Source: a virus
Taxonomy: Duplodnaviria; Caudoviricetes
DNA: 64,000 nucleotides
Strand: one strand, 5' to 3'
Virus record (IMG/VR): IMGVR_UViG_3300037067_013058
Location: 15,060 to 79,059 of that record
The notes beneath the pieces were generated by a model. The model worked only from the letters and a program-made list of their open reading frames with translations. It was not told where the DNA came from and made no database searches. The position numbers were made by a program, and so were the translations under genes. Positions 46,599-63,389 of this stretch are shown in pieces. The first letter of the stretch is position 1. Every line of letters starts with the position of its first letter.

Positions 46599-47387
46599 CT
46601 ATTCGGAACTGACTGTAACGCGCCTCTTGGATTTCGATACAGGCTTTTCATCAACGGCCTCTGCTTTAATCGAAACTCTCATTGAAGCTTCCTTCTTTTC
46701 TTCCTTGACTTTGGCCTCACTTTCCAAAGGCTTTACAATATTTTCATTTATCCATTGCGTTTCTGGTGATGATCTAACAGCATATTTCTGCAACTCCACC
46801 GGATCATCCAGAAATACTATATCTTCCTCTAGGAACTTCTCCAGCTCCTCTTCATCCATCATCTCAGTTTTACCAGAAGATGCTTCAGTTTCTAGATCTT
46901 TTGCTGCCTCTTCTTGTTGTCGTAACTCATCATTACGTTGTACAAAAGCCTCAACAAACCCCTCACGCGACGTCATTACTGCCAAAGGAACATACTCATT
47001 CTCGCCCGGCCTTTTTAGAAGATGCGTCTCCGGATCTTCCATTGGCATCAAATTCAAGCCCAAAAGATTTATCAACTCCTTACGGAAAGCTTTGAATAAT
47101 GTTCCAACTTCTTCTACTCGCCGTTCTTCCTTCATCCTCAAAACTTCGTACTCGAACATCCACTTCGTTTCATTCATATTTTTAACAATAGGATCTGAAA
47201 TTAATACCCTCTTGGATTCAAGTACCCGCGCCTTAACAATAACGTCAGAAACTACTCTGCGCCAATAGGGGAAGGCTCGGTCGTACTCTCTTCCAATGTC
47301 TCCTTTTCCGAACTCTCCCCCGAGGATTTTTTTAGCGTTGCAATTGCCTCCGTCCTTCGGGCCTCTAGCGTCTGATACTTCTCCCAA
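46599..47387 (-). CDS. Tail assembly chaperone, -1 frame extension (gpGT-like)
   Basis: Lies in the -1 frame relative to the upstream chaperone and overlaps it across an A AAA AAA heptamer; sits between tube and tape measure. Confidence 0.7.
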   Translation of the reverse strand: MGEVSDARGPKDGGNCNAKKILGGEFGKGDIGREYDRAFPYWRRVVSDVIVKARVLESKRVLISDPIVKNMNETKWMFEYEVLRMKEERRVEEVGTLFKAFRKELINLLGLNLMPMEDPETHLLKRPGENEYVPLAVMTSREGFVEAFVQRNDELRQQEEAAKDLETEASSGKTEMMDEEELEKFLEEDIVFLDDPVELQKYAVRSSPETQWINENIVKPLESEAKVKEEKKEASMRVSIKAEAVDEKPVSKSKRRVTVSSE

Positions 47388-47785
47388 AGCTCTGCAATAC
47401 CCTCTGGATAACGATCAGCAAGGAACTTCATCAAATGTTCCGCGCAAAAATACTTGCGGGAATAAGTATTCATGCTTTCCAACTCATTTCTCTTATCTTC
47501 AGAAAGCATTTTCCATTCTTCATCAAAATATTCGTAGATAGAAATATCATCAATCTTTCGAATACCAATAGAAAGTGTTGGAAGACGGAAAGAAGCAACG
47601 GCCGAAAGCTGATTACTCATAACCACATGGGCCATACGCCAATTGGACTCTTCCTCATTCAGAAGAGAAAAAGTCCAGTTGTGGCCAAGAACACTAAACG
47701 TATCGGTAATGTTCCCGGTAACATCCAGTTCTTTCCCGATGTCCTCAAGCAACTGTTTAACTTTTTTGGGATTTGTAGTAGACAT
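47252..47785 (-). CDS. Tail assembly chaperone (gpG-like)
   Basis: Immediately downstream of the tube gene; contains the slippery site near its 3' end. Confidence 0.72.
   Translation of the reverse strand: MSTTNPKKVKQLLEDIGKELDVTGNITDTFSVLGHNWTFSLLNEEESNWRMAHVVMSNQLSAVASFRLPTLSIGIRKIDDISIYEYFDEEWKMLSEDKRNELESMNTYSRKYFCAEHLMKFLADRYPEGIAELWEKYQTLEARRTEAIATLKKSSGESSEKETLEESTTEPSPIGAE
47327..47333 (-). other. Programmed -1 ribosomal frameshift heptamer A_AAA_AAA
   Basis: Minus strand CTA AAA AAA TCC (Leu-Lys-Lys-Ser); a -1 slip gives AAA ATC CTC GGG..., the open frame of 46599..47387. Confidence 0.72.
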
Positions 47786-47806
47786 TGTAGCTTTCGCTCA
47801 CTTTCT

Positions 47807-47820
47807 CTCGCCGAAGCGAG
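47807..47820 (-). other. C(UUCG)G tetraloop hairpin between tube and chaperone genes
   Basis: CTCGC-TTCG-GCGAG on the transcribed strand, preceded by GGTTA-GTTTT-TAACC; no U-tract, so a stabiliser or processing site rather than a clear terminator. Confidence 0.45.
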
Positions 47821-47847
47821 GTTAAAAACTAACCCAACCTGCAACTA

Positions 47848-54937: not shown

Positions 54938-55031
54938 CTACGTTTCGTATCACCATCGGGTGTGGTTCTCATCTTGACATGTAACCTCCGTGCCTGTATC
55001 TTTAGGCACCGACCTGCACCCCAGGTCGTTT
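54938..55031 (-). ncRNA. Putative TnpB omega-RNA scaffold 3' part (right end at 54958) plus guide
   Basis: CGACCTG/CAGGTCG stem, GTGCCT/AGGCAC stem, GGAGGTTAC...ATGAGAACCACACCC. Confidence 0.6.
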
Positions 55032-56155
55032 TCAACTTGTAAGATGTTCCTGGCTGAATTCTCATCTCTGTCCATAACCAAGCCACACACAGGACACTCA
55101 TGAATGCGAATATTTAGTGCCTTACGCACTAGGGTACCGCAATCCGAACAGTGCTGACTTGTGCCCTTTGGGTTAACTAGCACAACCGGAAAACCAGCTT
55201 CTTCCGCTTTATTTTTCAGTTGAGCTATAAACATCCCCCAGGAAGCATCCATTATGTTTCGTCTCATAGAACGGGTGTTTTTCTCTGTCATCCCTTCTGG
55301 GGCTGGACGTGTTGAAGCCAGCATCCCAACAATGTTCAATTTCTCAACTTTAAAACCATCATATTCTTTAGCTAGAGCAGCAACAGTTTGAAATATAAAA
55401 TCTTTGCGCTTATTAGCAACTTTCGCGCTGATGCGCGAAAGAACTTGCTTGGACTTTTTCCTATTGTTTGATCCTTTTTTCTTGGAACTTAAATCTCTTT
55501 GAGCTTCTTTTACCTGGGGAAGAACTTTCTTTAGAAAATGGGGATGATCTATATCTTTCCCATCGGACATTTTAGCAAAGGTCCTCAAACCAACATCGAT
55601 CCCAACCTCATTCCTAGGAGCTTTGACAGCAGGAGCAGGACCAACATCAATCCGAAAATCCGCCCACCAGCGATTTTGGCGCTTGACGATTCGAAGACCT
55701 TTGATTTCCCCGTCCCTGTGAATCTTGTTCCTCATAGTCAGAACAATAGGTGTTGGACCTGCTTTGATAATTAACTTCTTTCCTTCAATCTTCCAGCCCC
55801 CAAGACCAGAAATCAGCGTGTCAAATCTACCCTTACCCTTAAATCTCGGAAAACCTGGGTTTTTTCCTGCTTTTGATCTTCTGTAGAAACTAACATAGGC
55901 AAGATCCAACCTGCGGAGAGAGGTTAATCTCGTCATCTCACTCGGCAAAAGTTTAAACTCTGGATCATCCGCACGAAGGTCAGTTAAATCCCCATACTGT
56001 TCATAAAGAGAAACAGAAACTTTCTGTCTACTATAAGCCTCCCGCCTTTGCTGTAAGGCTGCATTGTAAAGCTGCCTACAAGATTCCAGCACAGAAAGAA
56101 GTAAAGCTTCCTGCTTATAAGATCGCCCTAACTTAACTTTACTTGTCCTAAACAT
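54950..56155 (-). CDS. tnpB: Solo TnpB RNA-guided nuclease (intact D-E-D), close paralog of 28291..29481
   Basis: GIDVGLR, KVEKLNI, TSQHCSDC / CPVC, MDRDENSA. Confidence 0.93.
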   Translation of the reverse strand: MFRTSKVKLGRSYKQEALLLSVLESCRQLYNAALQQRREAYSRQKVSVSLYEQYGDLTDLRADDPEFKLLPSEMTRLTSLRRLDLAYVSFYRRSKAGKNPGFPRFKGKGRFDTLISGLGGWKIEGKKLIIKAGPTPIVLTMRNKIHRDGEIKGLRIVKRQNRWWADFRIDVGPAPAVKAPRNEVGIDVGLRTFAKMSDGKDIDHPHFLKKVLPQVKEAQRDLSSKKKGSNNRKKSKQVLSRISAKVANKRKDFIFQTVAALAKEYDGFKVEKLNIVGMLASTRPAPEGMTEKNTRSMRRNIMDASWGMFIAQLKNKAEEAGFPVVLVNPKGTSQHCSDCGTLVRKALNIRIHECPVCGLVMDRDENSARNILQVENDLGCRSVPKDTGTEVTCQDENHTRW

Positions 56156-58351: not shown

Positions 58352-58462
58352 TTGTAACTCGATCATGTTCTGGGCATAACTCTTCATTATCAAAAAGCCT
58401 CCGCGCCAACGGCACAGCTAAAAGCTGTACTATCAGTCGTCAACCTGTGCCCCAGGTTGTTT
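58352..58462 (-). ncRNA. Putative TnpB omega-RNA scaffold 3' part (right end at 58372) plus guide
   Basis: CAACCTG/CAGGTTG stem (compensatory change vs the other two), GTACAGCT/AGCTGTGC stem, GGCGCGGAGG...ATGAAGAGTTATGCCC. Confidence 0.52.
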
Positions 58463-59598
58463 TTTCCTAAAGCAAAAATATTCTTGGCCGCATTTAAATC
58501 CCTGTCTAGCAACAAACCACAAACAGGGCAATCATGCATTCTAGAACCAAGATCTTTCTTTACTGTTGTCCCGCATCCGGAACACATCTGTGAAGTTCCT
58601 CTAGGATTTACGCAAACAACCGGACAGCCAGCTTCTTCCGCTTTACTGACCAGATGAAGAGCAAATGCACCCCAAGACGAATCTATAATCCCCCTCTTTA
58701 AACCGGGAAGACCAAACTTACCCAAACCTGAGGGAGCGCTATTCGTAGACATCATCCTTCTTATATCCAGCGCCTCCACTACAAAACCGTCATACGTTTT
58801 TACTAAATCCGAAACAACCTGATTTATAAAGTTCTTTCGTTGATTTACTATATTCTCATTTAATCGAGCGAGACGTTCCTGTGCCTTCTTCCTATTATTT
58901 GAGCCTTTTGTCTTTCTAGACAAATTTCTCTGCCCCTCTTTAAGTTTGGCAGAAGCGTTAACTAGAAAATGGGGATGCTCAACCTCAGATCCATCTGACA
59001 ATGTTGCAAAAGTTTTAATACCAACATCAATACCAACACTATTTTTTGCTTCCCCTTTTTCCGGAATATCCCCCATCTCAATTTGAAAATGCGCCCACCA
59101 ACGCCCTGCCCGCTCTACTAACTTAAACCCAACTATTTTACCCGCTAAATAAATACTATTTCTCATTCTTAGCACTATAGGGTCTTTACCATTAACCAAA
59201 ATAAGTTTTTTTCCATCTATCTTCCAGCCAGTTCGACCATAAAATAAAGTATTAAACCGATCAACCCCTTTATATCTAGGATACCCCGGCTTCTCCCCAC
59301 GTTTCAATCTATTAAAAAACTTCTGAAAAGCTAAGGCAAGTCGATGCAATGATGTAAGTCTCGCAGTCTCAACGGGAATGTTTCTAAACTCTATATCGTC
59401 TGCTCTCACCTTAGTCAGCTCTGCATGTTGATCATATTCCGTTAAGGATACGTGCTGTTTCACCCAAGCTTCGCGCCGCTGTTGCAAAGCAGCATTATAT
59501 AACTGCCGTAATAACTCCAAAGTAGTTTTGAGCTTTTTCTCCTGTTTAGGAGATTTCCCCAACTTTACCTTACAAGTTCTGTATAATTTAGCCATCAA
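58390..59598 (-). CDS. tnpB: Solo TnpB RNA-guided nuclease (intact D-E-D)
   Basis: RQLYNAALQQR, PGYPRYKG, GIDVGIK, VVEALDI, TSQMCSGC / CPVC, LDRDLNAA. Confidence 0.93.
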   Translation of the reverse strand: MMAKLYRTCKVKLGKSPKQEKKLKTTLELLRQLYNAALQQRREAWVKQHVSLTEYDQHAELTKVRADDIEFRNIPVETARLTSLHRLALAFQKFFNRLKRGEKPGYPRYKGVDRFNTLFYGRTGWKIDGKKLILVNGKDPIVLRMRNSIYLAGKIVGFKLVERAGRWWAHFQIEMGDIPEKGEAKNSVGIDVGIKTFATLSDGSEVEHPHFLVNASAKLKEGQRNLSRKTKGSNNRKKAQERLARLNENIVNQRKNFINQVVSDLVKTYDGFVVEALDIRRMMSTNSAPSGLGKFGLPGLKRGIIDSSWGAFALHLVSKAEEAGCPVVCVNPRGTSQMCSGCGTTVKKDLGSRMHDCPVCGLLLDRDLNAAKNIFALGKNNLGHRLTTDSTAFSCAVGAEAF

Positions 59599-60004: not shown

Positions 60005-60208
60005 TTACTCCCTATCTAGAAGCTTACCAATTTCTTGCTGAAGCTCCCCAAGTTTACTACCAATTTTTTCCAACTCATTATCAATATTCGCAAACCTGTG
60101 TGAAAAGGGACAATCATCTTTAGAAGGAAGTCTGCAAGTCGTGTCTTTTCCAAATACCTTTTTGAAACCGAGAATGATTGAGTTGAGCATGGGAATTTTC
60201 CTTTCCAT
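60005..60208 (-). CDS. Small hypothetical protein
   Basis: 67 aa, TAATG-coupled. Confidence 0.45.
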   Translation of the reverse strand: MERKIPMLNSIILGFKKVFGKDTTCRLPSKDDCPFSHRFANIDNELEKIGSKLGELQQEIGKLLDRE

Positions 60209-60666
60209 TATGGAATTGAAACTGTACGAGCAACCAGAGATGCAATTAGAGTAACAGCAACAGCAGCATTATTTGTCAATTCGAGAACAATAGGAAATCC
60301 GCCATAGCCCTTGAGAGTATGGGCAGTTTCTACATGGATATTTCTTTGGCGAAGATTGGAAGGGAAAATGTCGGTATCTGTGTGAATTACTGTAGCAACT
60401 TCAGCAGCACCAGCAAAAAGGTTAGTTGCTTGAAGAATTCCACCGGTATGTGTTGAAGTATCTACATAAAGTGGGCCAGTAAATGCACCTCCATAATATA
60501 CAGCCCAGGTAACTCCACCAGCAGGCAAAGCTCCACCGGATGAGCTAACTGAAATATTAATATCCCGGAAAGGTTCGCCACTGGGGTCCATCCATACACG
60601 AACTACGGGCGCTAATCCGCCAGCAGCCGTCATTGTCACTTCTTTCGTAGTTTCGATATATTGCAT
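60208..60666 (-). CDS. Putative virion protein, paralog of 60753..61211
   Basis: 152 aa; MQY...PSGEP...W.V.YGG...DT.TH.GG...G.GGFP shared; AAGGAGG RBS. Confidence 0.6.
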   Translation of the reverse strand: MQYIETTKEVTMTAAGGLAPVVRVWMDPSGEPFRDINISVSSSGGALPAGGVTWAVYYGGAFTGPLYVDTSTHTGGILQATNLFAGAAEVATVIHTDTDIFPSNLRQRNIHVETAHTLKGYGGFPIVLELTNNAAVAVTLIASLVARTVSIP

Positions 60667-60752
60667 TTGAGAGATTTCCTCCTTAGAATTTTCCTTAGTT
60701 TAGTCTACCTTAAAATTCGTTGGGACTCTTAAAGGGCTTGTATAAATTTTCG

Positions 60753-61211
60753 CTAATAAAGGGACAAAGATTTTGTAATGAAAGTTACCACTAAAGTTAC
60801 GTCGTCAATGTCGTTATTGGTGAATCTGGCTAGTAATGGGAAGCCGCCCCAACCAGTTTTGTTGGGAGATCCGTCAGATTTGTAAACAGTTTTACGGCGA
60901 TTTGTCGGAAGAATTAGTGGGCCGTTATAGATGATTTCAGCCACTTCTAAACCAAGAGCAAAAGAGCCAGAGGAAATTACGCGACCACCAGAATGTGTAG
61001 CAGTGTCTGAATATGGCACACCCGTTAACCAATTACCCCCATATAGAATTTCCCAATCAATGGTGAAACCACCAGGCATTGGGACACCTTTGGAATTAAC
61101 GGCAACAGTGAAATTTTCAATTGGTTCGCCACTGGGTTGAAACCATAATTTAGTAGATGCGCCTACTTTTCCAATAATGAAGATTTCGTGAACTTTTTCA
61201 GAATATTGCAT
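60753..61211 (-). CDS. Putative virion protein, paralog of 60208..60666
   Basis: 152 aa with the same motifs. Confidence 0.6.
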   Translation of the reverse strand: MQYSEKVHEIFIIGKVGASTKLWFQPSGEPIENFTVAVNSKGVPMPGGFTIDWEILYGGNWLTGVPYSDTATHSGGRVISSGSFALGLEVAEIIYNGPLILPTNRRKTVYKSDGSPNKTGWGGFPLLARFTNNDIDDVTLVVTFITKSLSLY

Positions 61212-61291
61212 GGTTTTTGGCCTTTGCTAACTATATGAGCATTGTACGATAAAATTGTTTGGAAGACTAAACTGTGGGACTTTATTGTGGG

Positions 61292-62125
61292 TTATTCTTC
61301 TTTAGCAGAACCGCCCTCAAGACGCTTTTGTGCCCACTTTTTGACCGATTTGTGATAACCATTAACTAGAATGAATTCAAGATCGGCAGGAGTTAGCGTC
61401 TTTTCGATAGCTTCTAGCTCCTCAATGAAATCGCGGGCAGGAAGCATCTCGGCTTCCTTAATATCCGCACCAACCTTGGAGCATAGCCCAACTACACGAG
61501 GAGTTAGTTGCTCTTCCAGGGGCGTAGGCTTGGTCAGTTCCTTCTCGGCTTCTGCCAACGTCATCTTTTCCATCGGCTTGAAGGCAGTCCGGTTTACAAC
61601 TGAACGATGCTTCTCATTGGAACGAGAAATTTCCTCATCAATTGTAGTCTGGTGCGCTGCCGCCTTCTGCTGGAAATAAGCCTTGTATTCCTCTTCAGAA
61701 AGGAAAACAATTGCCGGTGGCTGGCGATTTGACAGATTCCTGAGATCTGTGCTATTCTTGATAGCGTTGAAAGGAATGTACTGAGTCAGATTGACCGGAT
61801 CAAGTGTCCTAGCCAACCGGTGTGATTCCTTGCGATCTCCCGACACTTGGAATTCTAGCGAAATAAGCCGGTCAGACTTATTCTGAACATAGATGTCGCG
61901 CTCTTCCTTGAAATATTCAGTGAAATTAGTGATTGCAGTCATTGTACCCTCCAGGGATCTCCGTTTCAAACGGATTGTAAAAGGGGAAGTCGAAAACACT
62001 TCGGCCTCTCCGTCTTTTAATAACTTACGAGCCCTAGCGGGATGTGTGTATGATAGAAAGCAATTGCGTTCATCAACAACAGAAATTCTAGTATGCTTTT
62101 CATCCACGACAGGGTTTTCGCCCAA
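61292..62125 (-). CDS. Capsid-adjacent protein with N-terminal PLMP/RRXRR-like extension; second start at 61942
   Basis: Residues 13-54 ISVVDERNCFLSYTHPARARKLLKDGEAEVFSTSPFTIRLK; internal GGAGG-N5-ATG at 61942. Confidence 0.72.
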   Translation of the reverse strand: MGENPVVDEKHTRISVVDERNCFLSYTHPARARKLLKDGEAEVFSTSPFTIRLKRRSLEGTMTAITNFTEYFKEERDIYVQNKSDRLISLEFQVSGDRKESHRLARTLDPVNLTQYIPFNAIKNSTDLRNLSNRQPPAIVFLSEEEYKAYFQQKAAAHQTTIDEEISRSNEKHRSVVNRTAFKPMEKMTLAEAEKELTKPTPLEEQLTPRVVGLCSKVGADIKEAEMLPARDFIEELEAIEKTLTPADLEFILVNGYHKSVKKWAQKRLEGGSAKEE

Positions 62126-62128
62126 GCT

Positions 62129-62179
62129 CTACCTTTTCAGGTAGGTAATGCCGGTAGGTGGCCTAAACCACCTACCGGC
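62129..62179 (-). promoter_or_regulatory. Two-hairpin RNA element after the capsid gene
   Basis: Perfect 12-bp stem GCCGGTAGGTGG-TTTAGG-CCACCTACCGGC (62150-62179), then ATTAC and CTACCT-GAAA-AGGTAG (62129-62144) covering the SD of the TTG start at 62125. Confidence 0.7.
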
Positions 62180-62189
62180 CAACCATCAA

Positions 62190-63389
62190 CTATTTGGTCC
62201 CCTTCGCACAAGCACGCGAATTCGGAATACCAAAGCCAAGGATTTCACAGAATGCGAAGCCCTTAACGGTTTCCTGCATGGCGTATTTGTTGTAGGACTC
62301 TGAGAACAGCTCAACACGAACGCCCATTTCGCCCATATAGTCTGCGCCAGTTACCGCGTAAACGGTGCCTGCGGGAACTACTTCCTCAACGCCCGTGCCT
62401 GCGGCGGTGAGAATTTGTGCGTTCATGAACGTGCCGATGTAACCGGCCAACAGCAACTCGCGCTCGGTAACCATGTCAACCTGGGTGCTCATGGTCTTTA
62501 CGATGTCACTGAGTTCCTGACGATTGATCATGAAGTTCTCTACGATCAACCGGTGACGCTCAACCTGATACCGGATGTCTTCGAAAGCGGAAACACCGAG
62601 GGTACCAAATAGAACGGCGTCATTCTCAACTGTGGAAGCGCGGTCGATTAGAGCAAGACCCGCCTTGTCTTCCGCGAGTTCGATTTCCTGACGTGCTGTA
62701 TCCTGTGCTCTATCAAGCACATCAAAATTGTAGTGATATATGTCCATGATATCAACGCTCGGGAACGACGTGATCTTGAATTCGCTCGGGGTAATCCACT
62801 TGGTCTTAATGCGGCTCTCGGGAGTCTGACCATCCTGACCAATTACCCATGCAGTCGAACGAATGTCGAGTGGAATACGGAACAGTTCAGCCTGAGCCAA
62901 CTTGCGAACGCGATAAATCTTACGAGCAAAACCCTCGTAATCAAGAATCGCCTTAATTGGAAGCGCTAGTTCCTGCCCTACAACACGGAAACCCTCTGAA
63001 TCAGTTGAACCGGAGAGAGCCGCAGCAAGGATGTCCCTACGGGCTTCCTTGGTGATCTTTGACTCATCAGTGGCCTTACGCATCTGGAGGTTGCCTGCGT
63101 TCTTCTTGGTCACTTCATTGAGGAGGTGACTAATCTGAACCATTGCATCCTTGCGGTCTACAGCATTGAGTTCGCCCTTCTTGTCGAACATCCGGCGATT
63201 GGTGCCTGCGGTCTTGCCGTGGTCATAACTCTGTGGGTTAAATTTACCACTGGCTTCGAACAGAGACTCATCCCGCTTGGAAGCAAGGCGAGTCTTCGGG
63301 GCTACTTCTACTCCTGAACGCTTGGCAGTCTGTGGGGCTGCGGGGCGCTTCTGAGCGGCTAGTTTCCGGTATGGATTAGATGTACTCAT
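62190..63389 (-). CDS. Major capsid protein (HK97-fold, probable)
   Basis: 399 aa, strong GGAGG RBS, biased codon usage; ELALPIKAILDYEGFARK...LDRAQDTARQEIELAEDK...VPAGTVYAV...GFAFCEILGFGI pattern of large-phage capsids. Confidence 0.82.
   Translation of the reverse strand: MSTSNPYRKLAAQKRPAAPQTAKRSGVEVAPKTRLASKRDESLFEASGKFNPQSYDHGKTAGTNRRMFDKKGELNAVDRKDAMVQISHLLNEVTKKNAGNLQMRKATDESKITKEARRDILAAALSGSTDSEGFRVVGQELALPIKAILDYEGFARKIYRVRKLAQAELFRIPLDIRSTAWVIGQDGQTPESRIKTKWITPSEFKITSFPSVDIMDIYHYNFDVLDRAQDTARQEIELAEDKAGLALIDRASTVENDAVLFGTLGVSAFEDIRYQVERHRLIVENFMINRQELSDIVKTMSTQVDMVTERELLLAGYIGTFMNAQILTAAGTGVEEVVPAGTVYAVTGADYMGEMGVRVELFSESYNKYAMQETVKGFAFCEILGFGIPNSRACAKGTK

Follow-up and report, generated by a model that had tools for sequence, protein, structure and literature searches.

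The gene directly behind the major capsid protein gene of a large phage carries at its N-terminus an IscB-type PLMP domain without any nuclease part, fused in frame to a 216-aa protein (the body) with a strong start of its own, and its message is headed by a small tandem-hairpin RNA that covaries among relatives and has a second copy before another gene of the same phage. As judged from the comparison of related loci, the fusion is a conserved family under purifying selection and not a remnant, and a structured RNA co-occurs with the PLMP domain in most of the PLMP-bearing loci and not in the PLMP-less relatives. It is proposed that the PLMP-containing isoform binds these leaders and controls translation, a reading to which a probability of about 0.5 is assigned, no binding or expression data being available.

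The window, that is, the whole stretch of DNA analysed, holds 64 kb of a virus record of 79 kb which is about 45% complete, and the phage is thus a large one. The open reading frame 61292..62125 is present on the minus strand, with an in-frame TAG immediately 5' of its TTG, and the same strand carries every gene in this part of the window. The features of the locus are as follows.

62190..63389, minus strand: major capsid protein gene (phrog_2522 major head protein, E 2.3e-53), directly upstream of the PLMP-fusion gene
62150..62179, minus strand: 13-bp GC-rich hairpin just 3' of the capsid stop codon, without U-tract
61292..62107, minus strand: coding sequence of the putative long isoform, GTG start, 271 aa (PLMP domain, linker and body)
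61946..62092, minus strand: PLMP domain, residues 12-60 in the 277-aa numbering, by Pfam and by structural match to IscB/IsrB
61940..61952, minus strand: internal ribosome-binding site and start within the linker codons (GGAGG at 61948-61952, five bases, ATG at 61940-61942)
61292..61942, minus strand: coding sequence of the putative short isoform, 216 aa (the body), from the internal ATG

The PLMP domain and the family that carries it

Residues 15-57 were matched by positions 2-44 of the 174-position Pfam profile RRXRR (PF14239) at 38.1 bits (E 1.9e-9); the gathering threshold of this family is 25 bits, and the match covers just the first quarter of the model. In an AlphaFold2 model of the whole frame (47 homologues, pLDDT 89) residues 12-60 superpose on the PLMP domain of TbaIscB (9k30_A) with Z 8.0 and rmsd 1.9 Å over 49 residues at 43% identity, as well as on that of DtIsrB (8dmb_P, Z 6.6) and of other IscBs, and the top nine Foldseek matches in the PDB are all IscB or IsrB. 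The assignment made in the first-pass annotation, where the first codons were read as an IscB-type PLMP/RRXRR domain, was thus borne out with significant scores both by sequence and by fold. The absence of RuvC, bridge helix and HNH behind the domain, which it had also stated, agrees with the Pfam and structure searches: the split RuvC with arginine-rich bridge helix is absent, the structural alignments to IscB being confined to residues 12-60, and no HNH family appears in the Pfam scan, while a PHROG match named "HNH endonuclease" is limited to the PLMP part (residues 15-58). In IscB the tetrapeptide that gives the domain its name has contacts to the RuvC domain as well as to the omega-RNA (PMC9640706); it is replaced by LSYT or LEYT in the phage genes, and the window gene has LSYT, in line with the replacement seen earlier. 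The basic helix HPARARKLLK is kept and represents the best-conserved part of the phage PLMP domain.

The phage gene is not IscB, IsrB or IshB. With IscB and IsrB (PF14239; HEARO RF02033; 9K30, 8DMB, 7UTN, 7XHT) it shares the sequence and fold of the PLMP domain; however, RuvC, bridge helix, HNH and TAM-interacting domain are all missing, neither a guide nor a HEARO match was detected at the locus, the tetrapeptide has been exchanged, an unrelated phage protein is the fusion partner, and the RNA module recurs at a second gene. In IshB (PLMP plus HNH, about 180 aa) and in other fusions the PLMP domain is likewise a portable N-terminal module outside full IscB, but the phage gene contains neither HNH nor another nuclease, and the domain is joined here to a structural-block protein whose function is unknown. 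Other arrangements seen are a nuclease-free 298-aa protein with PLMP and a PAPS-reductase-like domain (P0196, P0197; L095:286-1182), with two small hairpins about 75 nt upstream of the gene in L095, and a 267-aa PLMP protein (P0198). The N-terminal domain of IF3 was reported as a remote PLMP homologue in the IsrB structure paper (PMC9581776). For the phage gene the Foldseek rows to this domain are weak (6o6d, 6neq, E above 1) and not significant, and the IF3 C-terminal domain is missing.

The body was modelled (AlphaFold2, pLDDT 91) as a beta-rich N-terminal part followed by a helical C-terminal part. Against the PDB (VIA-align, Foldseek) it gave only generic helical matches with Z below 7, and the ESM Atlas, searched by shape as well as by features, yielded unnamed viral clusters only; over its whole length Foldseek matched it (E 7e-8 to 1e-5) to large-phage proteins of about 210-225 aa that are uncharacterised (PaBG, Motura). 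In phages Lauda and JA11 the genes behind the capsid gene showed no similarity to the body profile. The gene lies in the structural gene block, and a role of the body as head protein is not shown.

Conservation of the fusion was followed in several sets. PF14239 was found at the N-terminus of 33 out of 47 homologues from a set of 5.8 billion proteins, down to 37% identity. A body-only profile collected 476 cluster representatives at E <= 1e-3, and the PLMP domain is present, as called, in 83 of the best 150 of these, which is an undercount because gene callers often choose the internal ATG. In 89 loci taken from viral and metagenome contigs the PLMP domain occurs once and in frame in about 65, as a tandem pair in three and not at all in about 15, and the position of the gene after the capsid gene is fixed across all loci. 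Most relatives, even at only 28-37% identity, have the extension in frame, and with 28-45% protein identity it can still be identified in dozens of loci; for the PLMP segment dN/dS amounts to 0.07-0.37 (12 pairs), below 1 and similar to that of the body.

The only GenBank phage record with a homologue is KX853510 (Virus Rctr197k, 60618-61757, L001), where the gene is annotated as misc_feature ("similar to hypothetical protein") and not as CDS, with the frame open under table 11. The capsid protein of this virus has 59% identity to that of the window, the PLMP-fusion gene likewise stands directly after the capsid gene, and its N-terminal segment is PLMP-like and diverged. Tandem double PLMP domains before the body occur in L031, L032 and L033 and in the proteins P0091 and P0104, and in L068 a natural split form is present, with the PLMP domain as a separate 75-aa frame (1962-2186), a stop, and then the body frame 2190-2966. 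A search of genome contigs with the PLMP peptide returned one locus, a family member on a contig labelled Thermotogae, and no IscB; this member (L093, CAZDDA010000141.1) lies on a 6-kb contig binned in a Thermotogae metagenome-assembled genome, which could be a hint at the host or a mis-binned phage contig. No paper on PLMP within phage structural modules turned up in full-text literature searches.

Two TnpB-type genes of 402 and 401 aa (58390-59598 and 54950-56155, both on the minus strand) lie within the late/structural block, each with OrfB_IS605, Cas12f1-like TNB and HTH domains, so elements of the OMEGA family are present in the phage. Such elements are a plausible source lineage of the captured domain, TnpB itself being without PLMP domain. 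Directly downstream of the PLMP gene two adjacent frames of 152 aa each (60753-61211 and 60208-60666, minus strand) gave no family match; by eye they resemble paralogues, both beginning with MQY and having PSGEP, YGG, TH(S/T)GG, GFP and TNN in common.

Start sites and leader RNA of the PLMP gene

The strong internal start, GGAGG-GTACA-ATG at 61942, is as the first-pass annotation had described it. A Shine-Dalgarno sequence (GGAGG, AGGGAGG or AGGAG at normal spacing) with ATG occupies the same place in 33 of the 33 loci examined, 12-22 codons upstream of the first conserved body motif, and the linker codons lying under it differ between clades (LEG, PRE, RRR, ERR); in the PLMP-less relatives it is the sole start. 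Since no locus has lost this site, the one frame is expected to give a long and a short isoform, although production of both is not shown. An upstream start codon is also kept 19-23 codons before the basic helix; it is often GTG or TTG, and as a rule no good Shine-Dalgarno sequence precedes it. The PLMP-bearing loci mostly have no strong Shine-Dalgarno at the long start and a structured RNA instead, while some have ordinary sites.

Concerning the position of the long start, GTG 62107 directly follows the second leader hairpin and has been retained by two close relatives, L035 and L036; 271 aa is likewise the length of the stored gene call P0003. The upstream TTG 62125 was discounted as a start, being out of frame in L035 and L036 and sitting in the linker between the two RNA hairpins. 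As far as the comparison allows, the long isoform most likely starts at GTG 62107 and has 271 aa rather than 277. From the earlier proposal of isoforms of 277 and 216 aa the two forms and the internal start were therefore retained, and the length of the longer one was revised. In the public metatranscriptome data a single contig was found, which spans just the 3' end of the capsid gene (62205-62354) and not the PLMP gene, and a second public run labelled as RNA is probably DNA.

The leader upstream of the long start consists of the following parts.

62110-62147, minus strand: leader copy 1, a 38-nt tandem-hairpin module (model R2, 32.3 bits, E 5e-6 in the window)
62129-62144, minus strand: first hairpin (HP1), 6 bp with GAAA loop and a UUACC preamble ahead
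62124-62128, minus strand: purine-rich linker
62112-62123, minus strand: second hairpin (HP2), GGG/CCC

The long start codon stands 4 nt downstream of this leader copy. The RNA of 62098-62190 has a minimum free energy of -41.6 kcal/mol (z -4.7), and none of 200 shuffles was equally stable. This segment includes the hairpin at 62150..62179, which has a similar counterpart behind the capsid gene in most related loci; a classic intrinsic terminator is less likely there because the U-tract is absent, and a stabiliser of the mRNA 3' end or a partial terminator is the more likely function.

Leaders of the PLMP-less loci are AT-rich with a plain GGAGG, whereas those of the PLMP-bearing loci are mostly conserved, GC-rich and hairpin-forming. 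Two covariance models were used for their detection, R2 for the core module and R1 built from the RNA of group B (12 loci). Outside group B the core module is composed of a (U)UACC or AACC preamble, HP1, a purine-rich GAG(G) linker and HP2. In an alignment of 21 copies 84.7% of the cells are paired, the slid controls reaching 38-56%, and both partners vary in 8 of 9 pairs; the alignment was fitted to the R2 model, which favours structure. In group B the spacer from capsid gene to PLMP start, 200 nt long, folds into seven helices, including a pseudoknot of an invariant CCACC hairpin loop with GGTGG, and the ATG lies within the loop of the last hairpin. Here 92.3% of the cells are paired against 40-49% with slid partners, 36 of 46 pairs change on both sides, and none of 500 shuffles reaches the observed values. 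In groups A and B the module is situated 20-110 nt upstream of the PLMP start and does not adjoin it.

Neither R1 nor R2 matched any of the PLMP-less loci tested. R1 is limited to the group-B loci plus L070, and in about 12 of 43 distinct PLMP-bearing loci the leader was recognised by neither model. The seven-helix spacer RNA of about 200 nt is found in L011, L018-L023, L054-L061 and L071 (alignment A5) and belongs to no Rfam family; it may be a cut-down descendant of omega-RNA or a new RNA family. In L070 the group-B leader is kept (positions 1-260, R1 74.7 bits, cut by the contig end) with a PLMP part that is apparently decayed or shortened.

The leader resembles a known arrangement in IsrB. 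According to the structural study of that protein, its PLMP domain contacts the tandem terminal omega-RNA hairpins SL7/SL8 and the Shine-Dalgarno sequence and stabilises the base of the Shine-Dalgarno-holding hairpin immediately before the IsrB frame, a contact proposed by the authors as possible regulation of IsrB expression (PMC9581776). The phage leader likewise offers tandem hairpins with Shine-Dalgarno-like purines directly before the frame, and in group B a hairpin loop pairs with a stretch beside the PLMP-proximal hairpin, similarly to the nexus pseudoknot of omega-RNA. Homology to SL7/SL8 is not shown, because HEARO matches neither the window nor the phage loci: Rfam searches revealed no relevant family in the whole window at gathering score, and no relevant family and no HEARO in eight related loci at E <= 10, while a true IscB locus (L094) used as positive control was matched by HEARO at 59.8 bits.

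A second copy of the leader

When the window was scanned with R2 with filters off, a further match was obtained before a gene without PLMP domain.

47786-47823, minus strand: leader copy 2, tandem-hairpin module (R2, 18.1 bits, E 0.017), 1 nt before the ATG
47252..47785, minus strand: 177-aa gene behind leader copy 2 (phrog_32052, unknown function)

Its score is modest, and it is the only other match below E 1. This copy surfaced only by the covariance model, as a search of the window with the leader sequence at up to 3 mismatches returned the original only. Compared with L097, where the protein has 93% identity, HP1 of copy 2 has two compensatory pair swaps and HP2 is unchanged. R2 also matches directly before the orthologue of the 177-aa gene in the complete distant phage genomes G001 and G004 (42-49% identity), and the group-B orthologues are preceded by UUUACC, a hairpin, GGAGG and a second hairpin with the AUG inside it, to which the P2-P3 part of R1 matches. 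In the one PLMP-less genome with an orthologue, the sole control available, the leader is AT-rich with a plain AAGGAG. Weaker R2 matches in L104, L105, L107 and L108 were discounted as weak or lying inside long open frames. Outside the window (L096) a weak R2 match with an AACC preamble was noted at G000:C1:13272-13310, minus strand (13.7 bits, E 0.049).

The 177-aa gene follows a virion structural protein gene (phrog_985). It is probably a G/GT-type tail-assembly-chaperone-like gene with a -1 frameshift; this prediction is made because of a slippery A AAA AAA near 47333, an overlapping -1 frame open from 47387 to 46599 on the minus strand, and the place after the virion structural protein.

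Proposed control of translation and its alternatives

In the preferred reading the phage would have domesticated the RNA-binding half of an OMEGA (IscB/IsrB) ribonucleoprotein. Strong initiation at the internal GGAGG-ATG (61942) would yield an abundant 216-aa body, and weak initiation at GTG 62107 a rarer 271-aa PLMP form. The PLMP domain of the long isoform would bind the hairpin pair in the manner in which the IsrB domain binds the terminal omega-RNA hairpins with the Shine-Dalgarno sequence, and such binding would set the initiation frequency at the long isoform's own start, resulting in a feedback on the ratio of long to short form; the same isoform would also act on copy 2 at the chaperone-like gene (47785). 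In both window leaders the sole Shine-Dalgarno-like purines are those of the linker between HP1 and HP2, and since the start lies 1-4 nt behind HP2, the stability or occupancy of the hairpins should decide ribosome access. A structured leader with covariation is located at the start proposed to be regulated, as would be required of an operator. Repression seems a more likely direction of control than activation, by inference only, and RNA binding by the phage domain, the sign of the effect and the reason for the fusion of regulator and body are all inferred. Weighing against this reading are the PLMP-bearing loci without a recognised leader, the distance of the module from the PLMP start in groups A and B, the lack of a HEARO match, the modest score of copy 2, the single PLMP-less genome that serves as control at the 177-aa gene, and the fusion to the body, which a regulator alone does not account for. 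The autoregulatory translational control suggested in the first-pass annotation is supported by the covarying leader that accompanies the domain, and control probably goes beyond the own gene, given the second copy, with RNA binding still an inference.

This proposal places the gene near two groups of known systems. In phage translational operators (the MS2 coat/replicase hairpin, T4 RegA, Mu Com) and in ribosomal-protein autoregulation a small start-codon hairpin is protein-bound, as it would be here, and the regulator here too would come from the regulated message; unlike MS2 coat, RegA and Com, to which it is unrelated, the phage PLMP domain derives from a transposon nuclease and its binding is inferred only. 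Nested isoforms from an internal ribosome-binding site and start in one frame are found likewise in lambda C/Nu3, T7 gene 4A/4B and phiX174 A/A*, but the extra N-terminal part is in this case a self-contained RNA-binding domain, whose start lies within a structured leader. On these analogies the gene can be read as a domain exaptation that would work like a translational operator and a nested-isoform gene.

Several other explanations have to be weighed against translational control by the PLMP isoform. The leader and the domain may be unrelated, the former being a cis element recognised by a host factor or the ribosome, such as an mRNA stability element or a split Shine-Dalgarno that HP2 would carry close to the start, the latter being reused for protein or DNA contacts, and their co-occurrence reflecting shared descent. 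This is held to be unlikely, although it would accommodate the changed surface left by the replacement of the RuvC-contacting tetrapeptide, the roughly one quarter of PLMP-bearing loci without a recognisable leader and the position of copy 2 before a gene that has no PLMP domain; it is opposed by the fact that the helix best conserved in the phage domain is the very basic helix that marks PLMP, by the absence of the leaders from all PLMP-less loci tested and from the 177-aa orthologue of the sole PLMP-less genome, and by the PLMP frame directly behind Shine-Dalgarno-holding hairpins, which mirrors IsrB. Quite unlikely is a function in RNA tethering or as assembly cofactor, where the PLMP isoform would hold the RNA as a stable ribonucleoprotein and bring it to the assembly site of the body, loosely like phi29 pRNA. 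Against it, the RNA of the window is no more than a small hairpin pair abutting start codons, no stable small RNA is shown, and the location of copy 2 exactly at the start of another gene, together with the group-B start codon inside HP2, is the placement of an operator and not one that a structural RNA requires; the tethering idea nevertheless gains from the large group-B RNA with several helices and a pseudoknot, beyond the needs of a simple operator, from lineages with two tandem PLMP domains, and from the fusion to a structural-block protein.

A neutral remnant of IscB, IsrB or an HNH homing-type gene that formerly stood between the capsid gene and its neighbour, in frame by chance and untranslated, could be imagined from the two nearby TnpB (IS605 OrfB) genes, which point to active OMEGA-type elements in the phage, from the decayed domain of L070 and from the stop between PLMP domain and body in L068. 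The in-frame and recognisable extension in dozens of distant loci, its dN/dS well below 1 and the start codon kept at nearly constant distance from the helix leave this almost no likelihood, and on these comparisons a neutral IscB stub may be regarded as excluded for practical purposes.

With the preferred reading of control by the PLMP isoform a broader hypothesis is connected, which is offered only tentatively: an OMEGA protein-RNA pair, the PLMP domain with the terminal omega-RNA hairpins, captured by a lineage of large phages, may have become a post-transcriptional regulon across several assembly genes that couples their stoichiometry, a single PLMP-tagged isoform reading the module copies at their starts, which in this phage would be those of the capsid-adjacent gene and the chaperone-like gene, and in some clades its RNA may now be a 200-nt pseudoknotted scaffold, maybe more than an operator. 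So far PLMP is known solely as an accessory part of RNA-guided nucleases in the lineage that leads to Cas9. Its nuclease-free occurrence in hundreds of phage genes with a covarying hairpin would show that the OMEGA protein-RNA handle can serve as a stand-alone module of gene control, and the locus is a candidate for a new translational regulator of phage late and assembly genes. With about 55 aa and 38 nt it would provide a minimal natural system in which recognition of RNA by PLMP can be studied, and engineering might gain from it a compact orthogonal RNA-protein pair.
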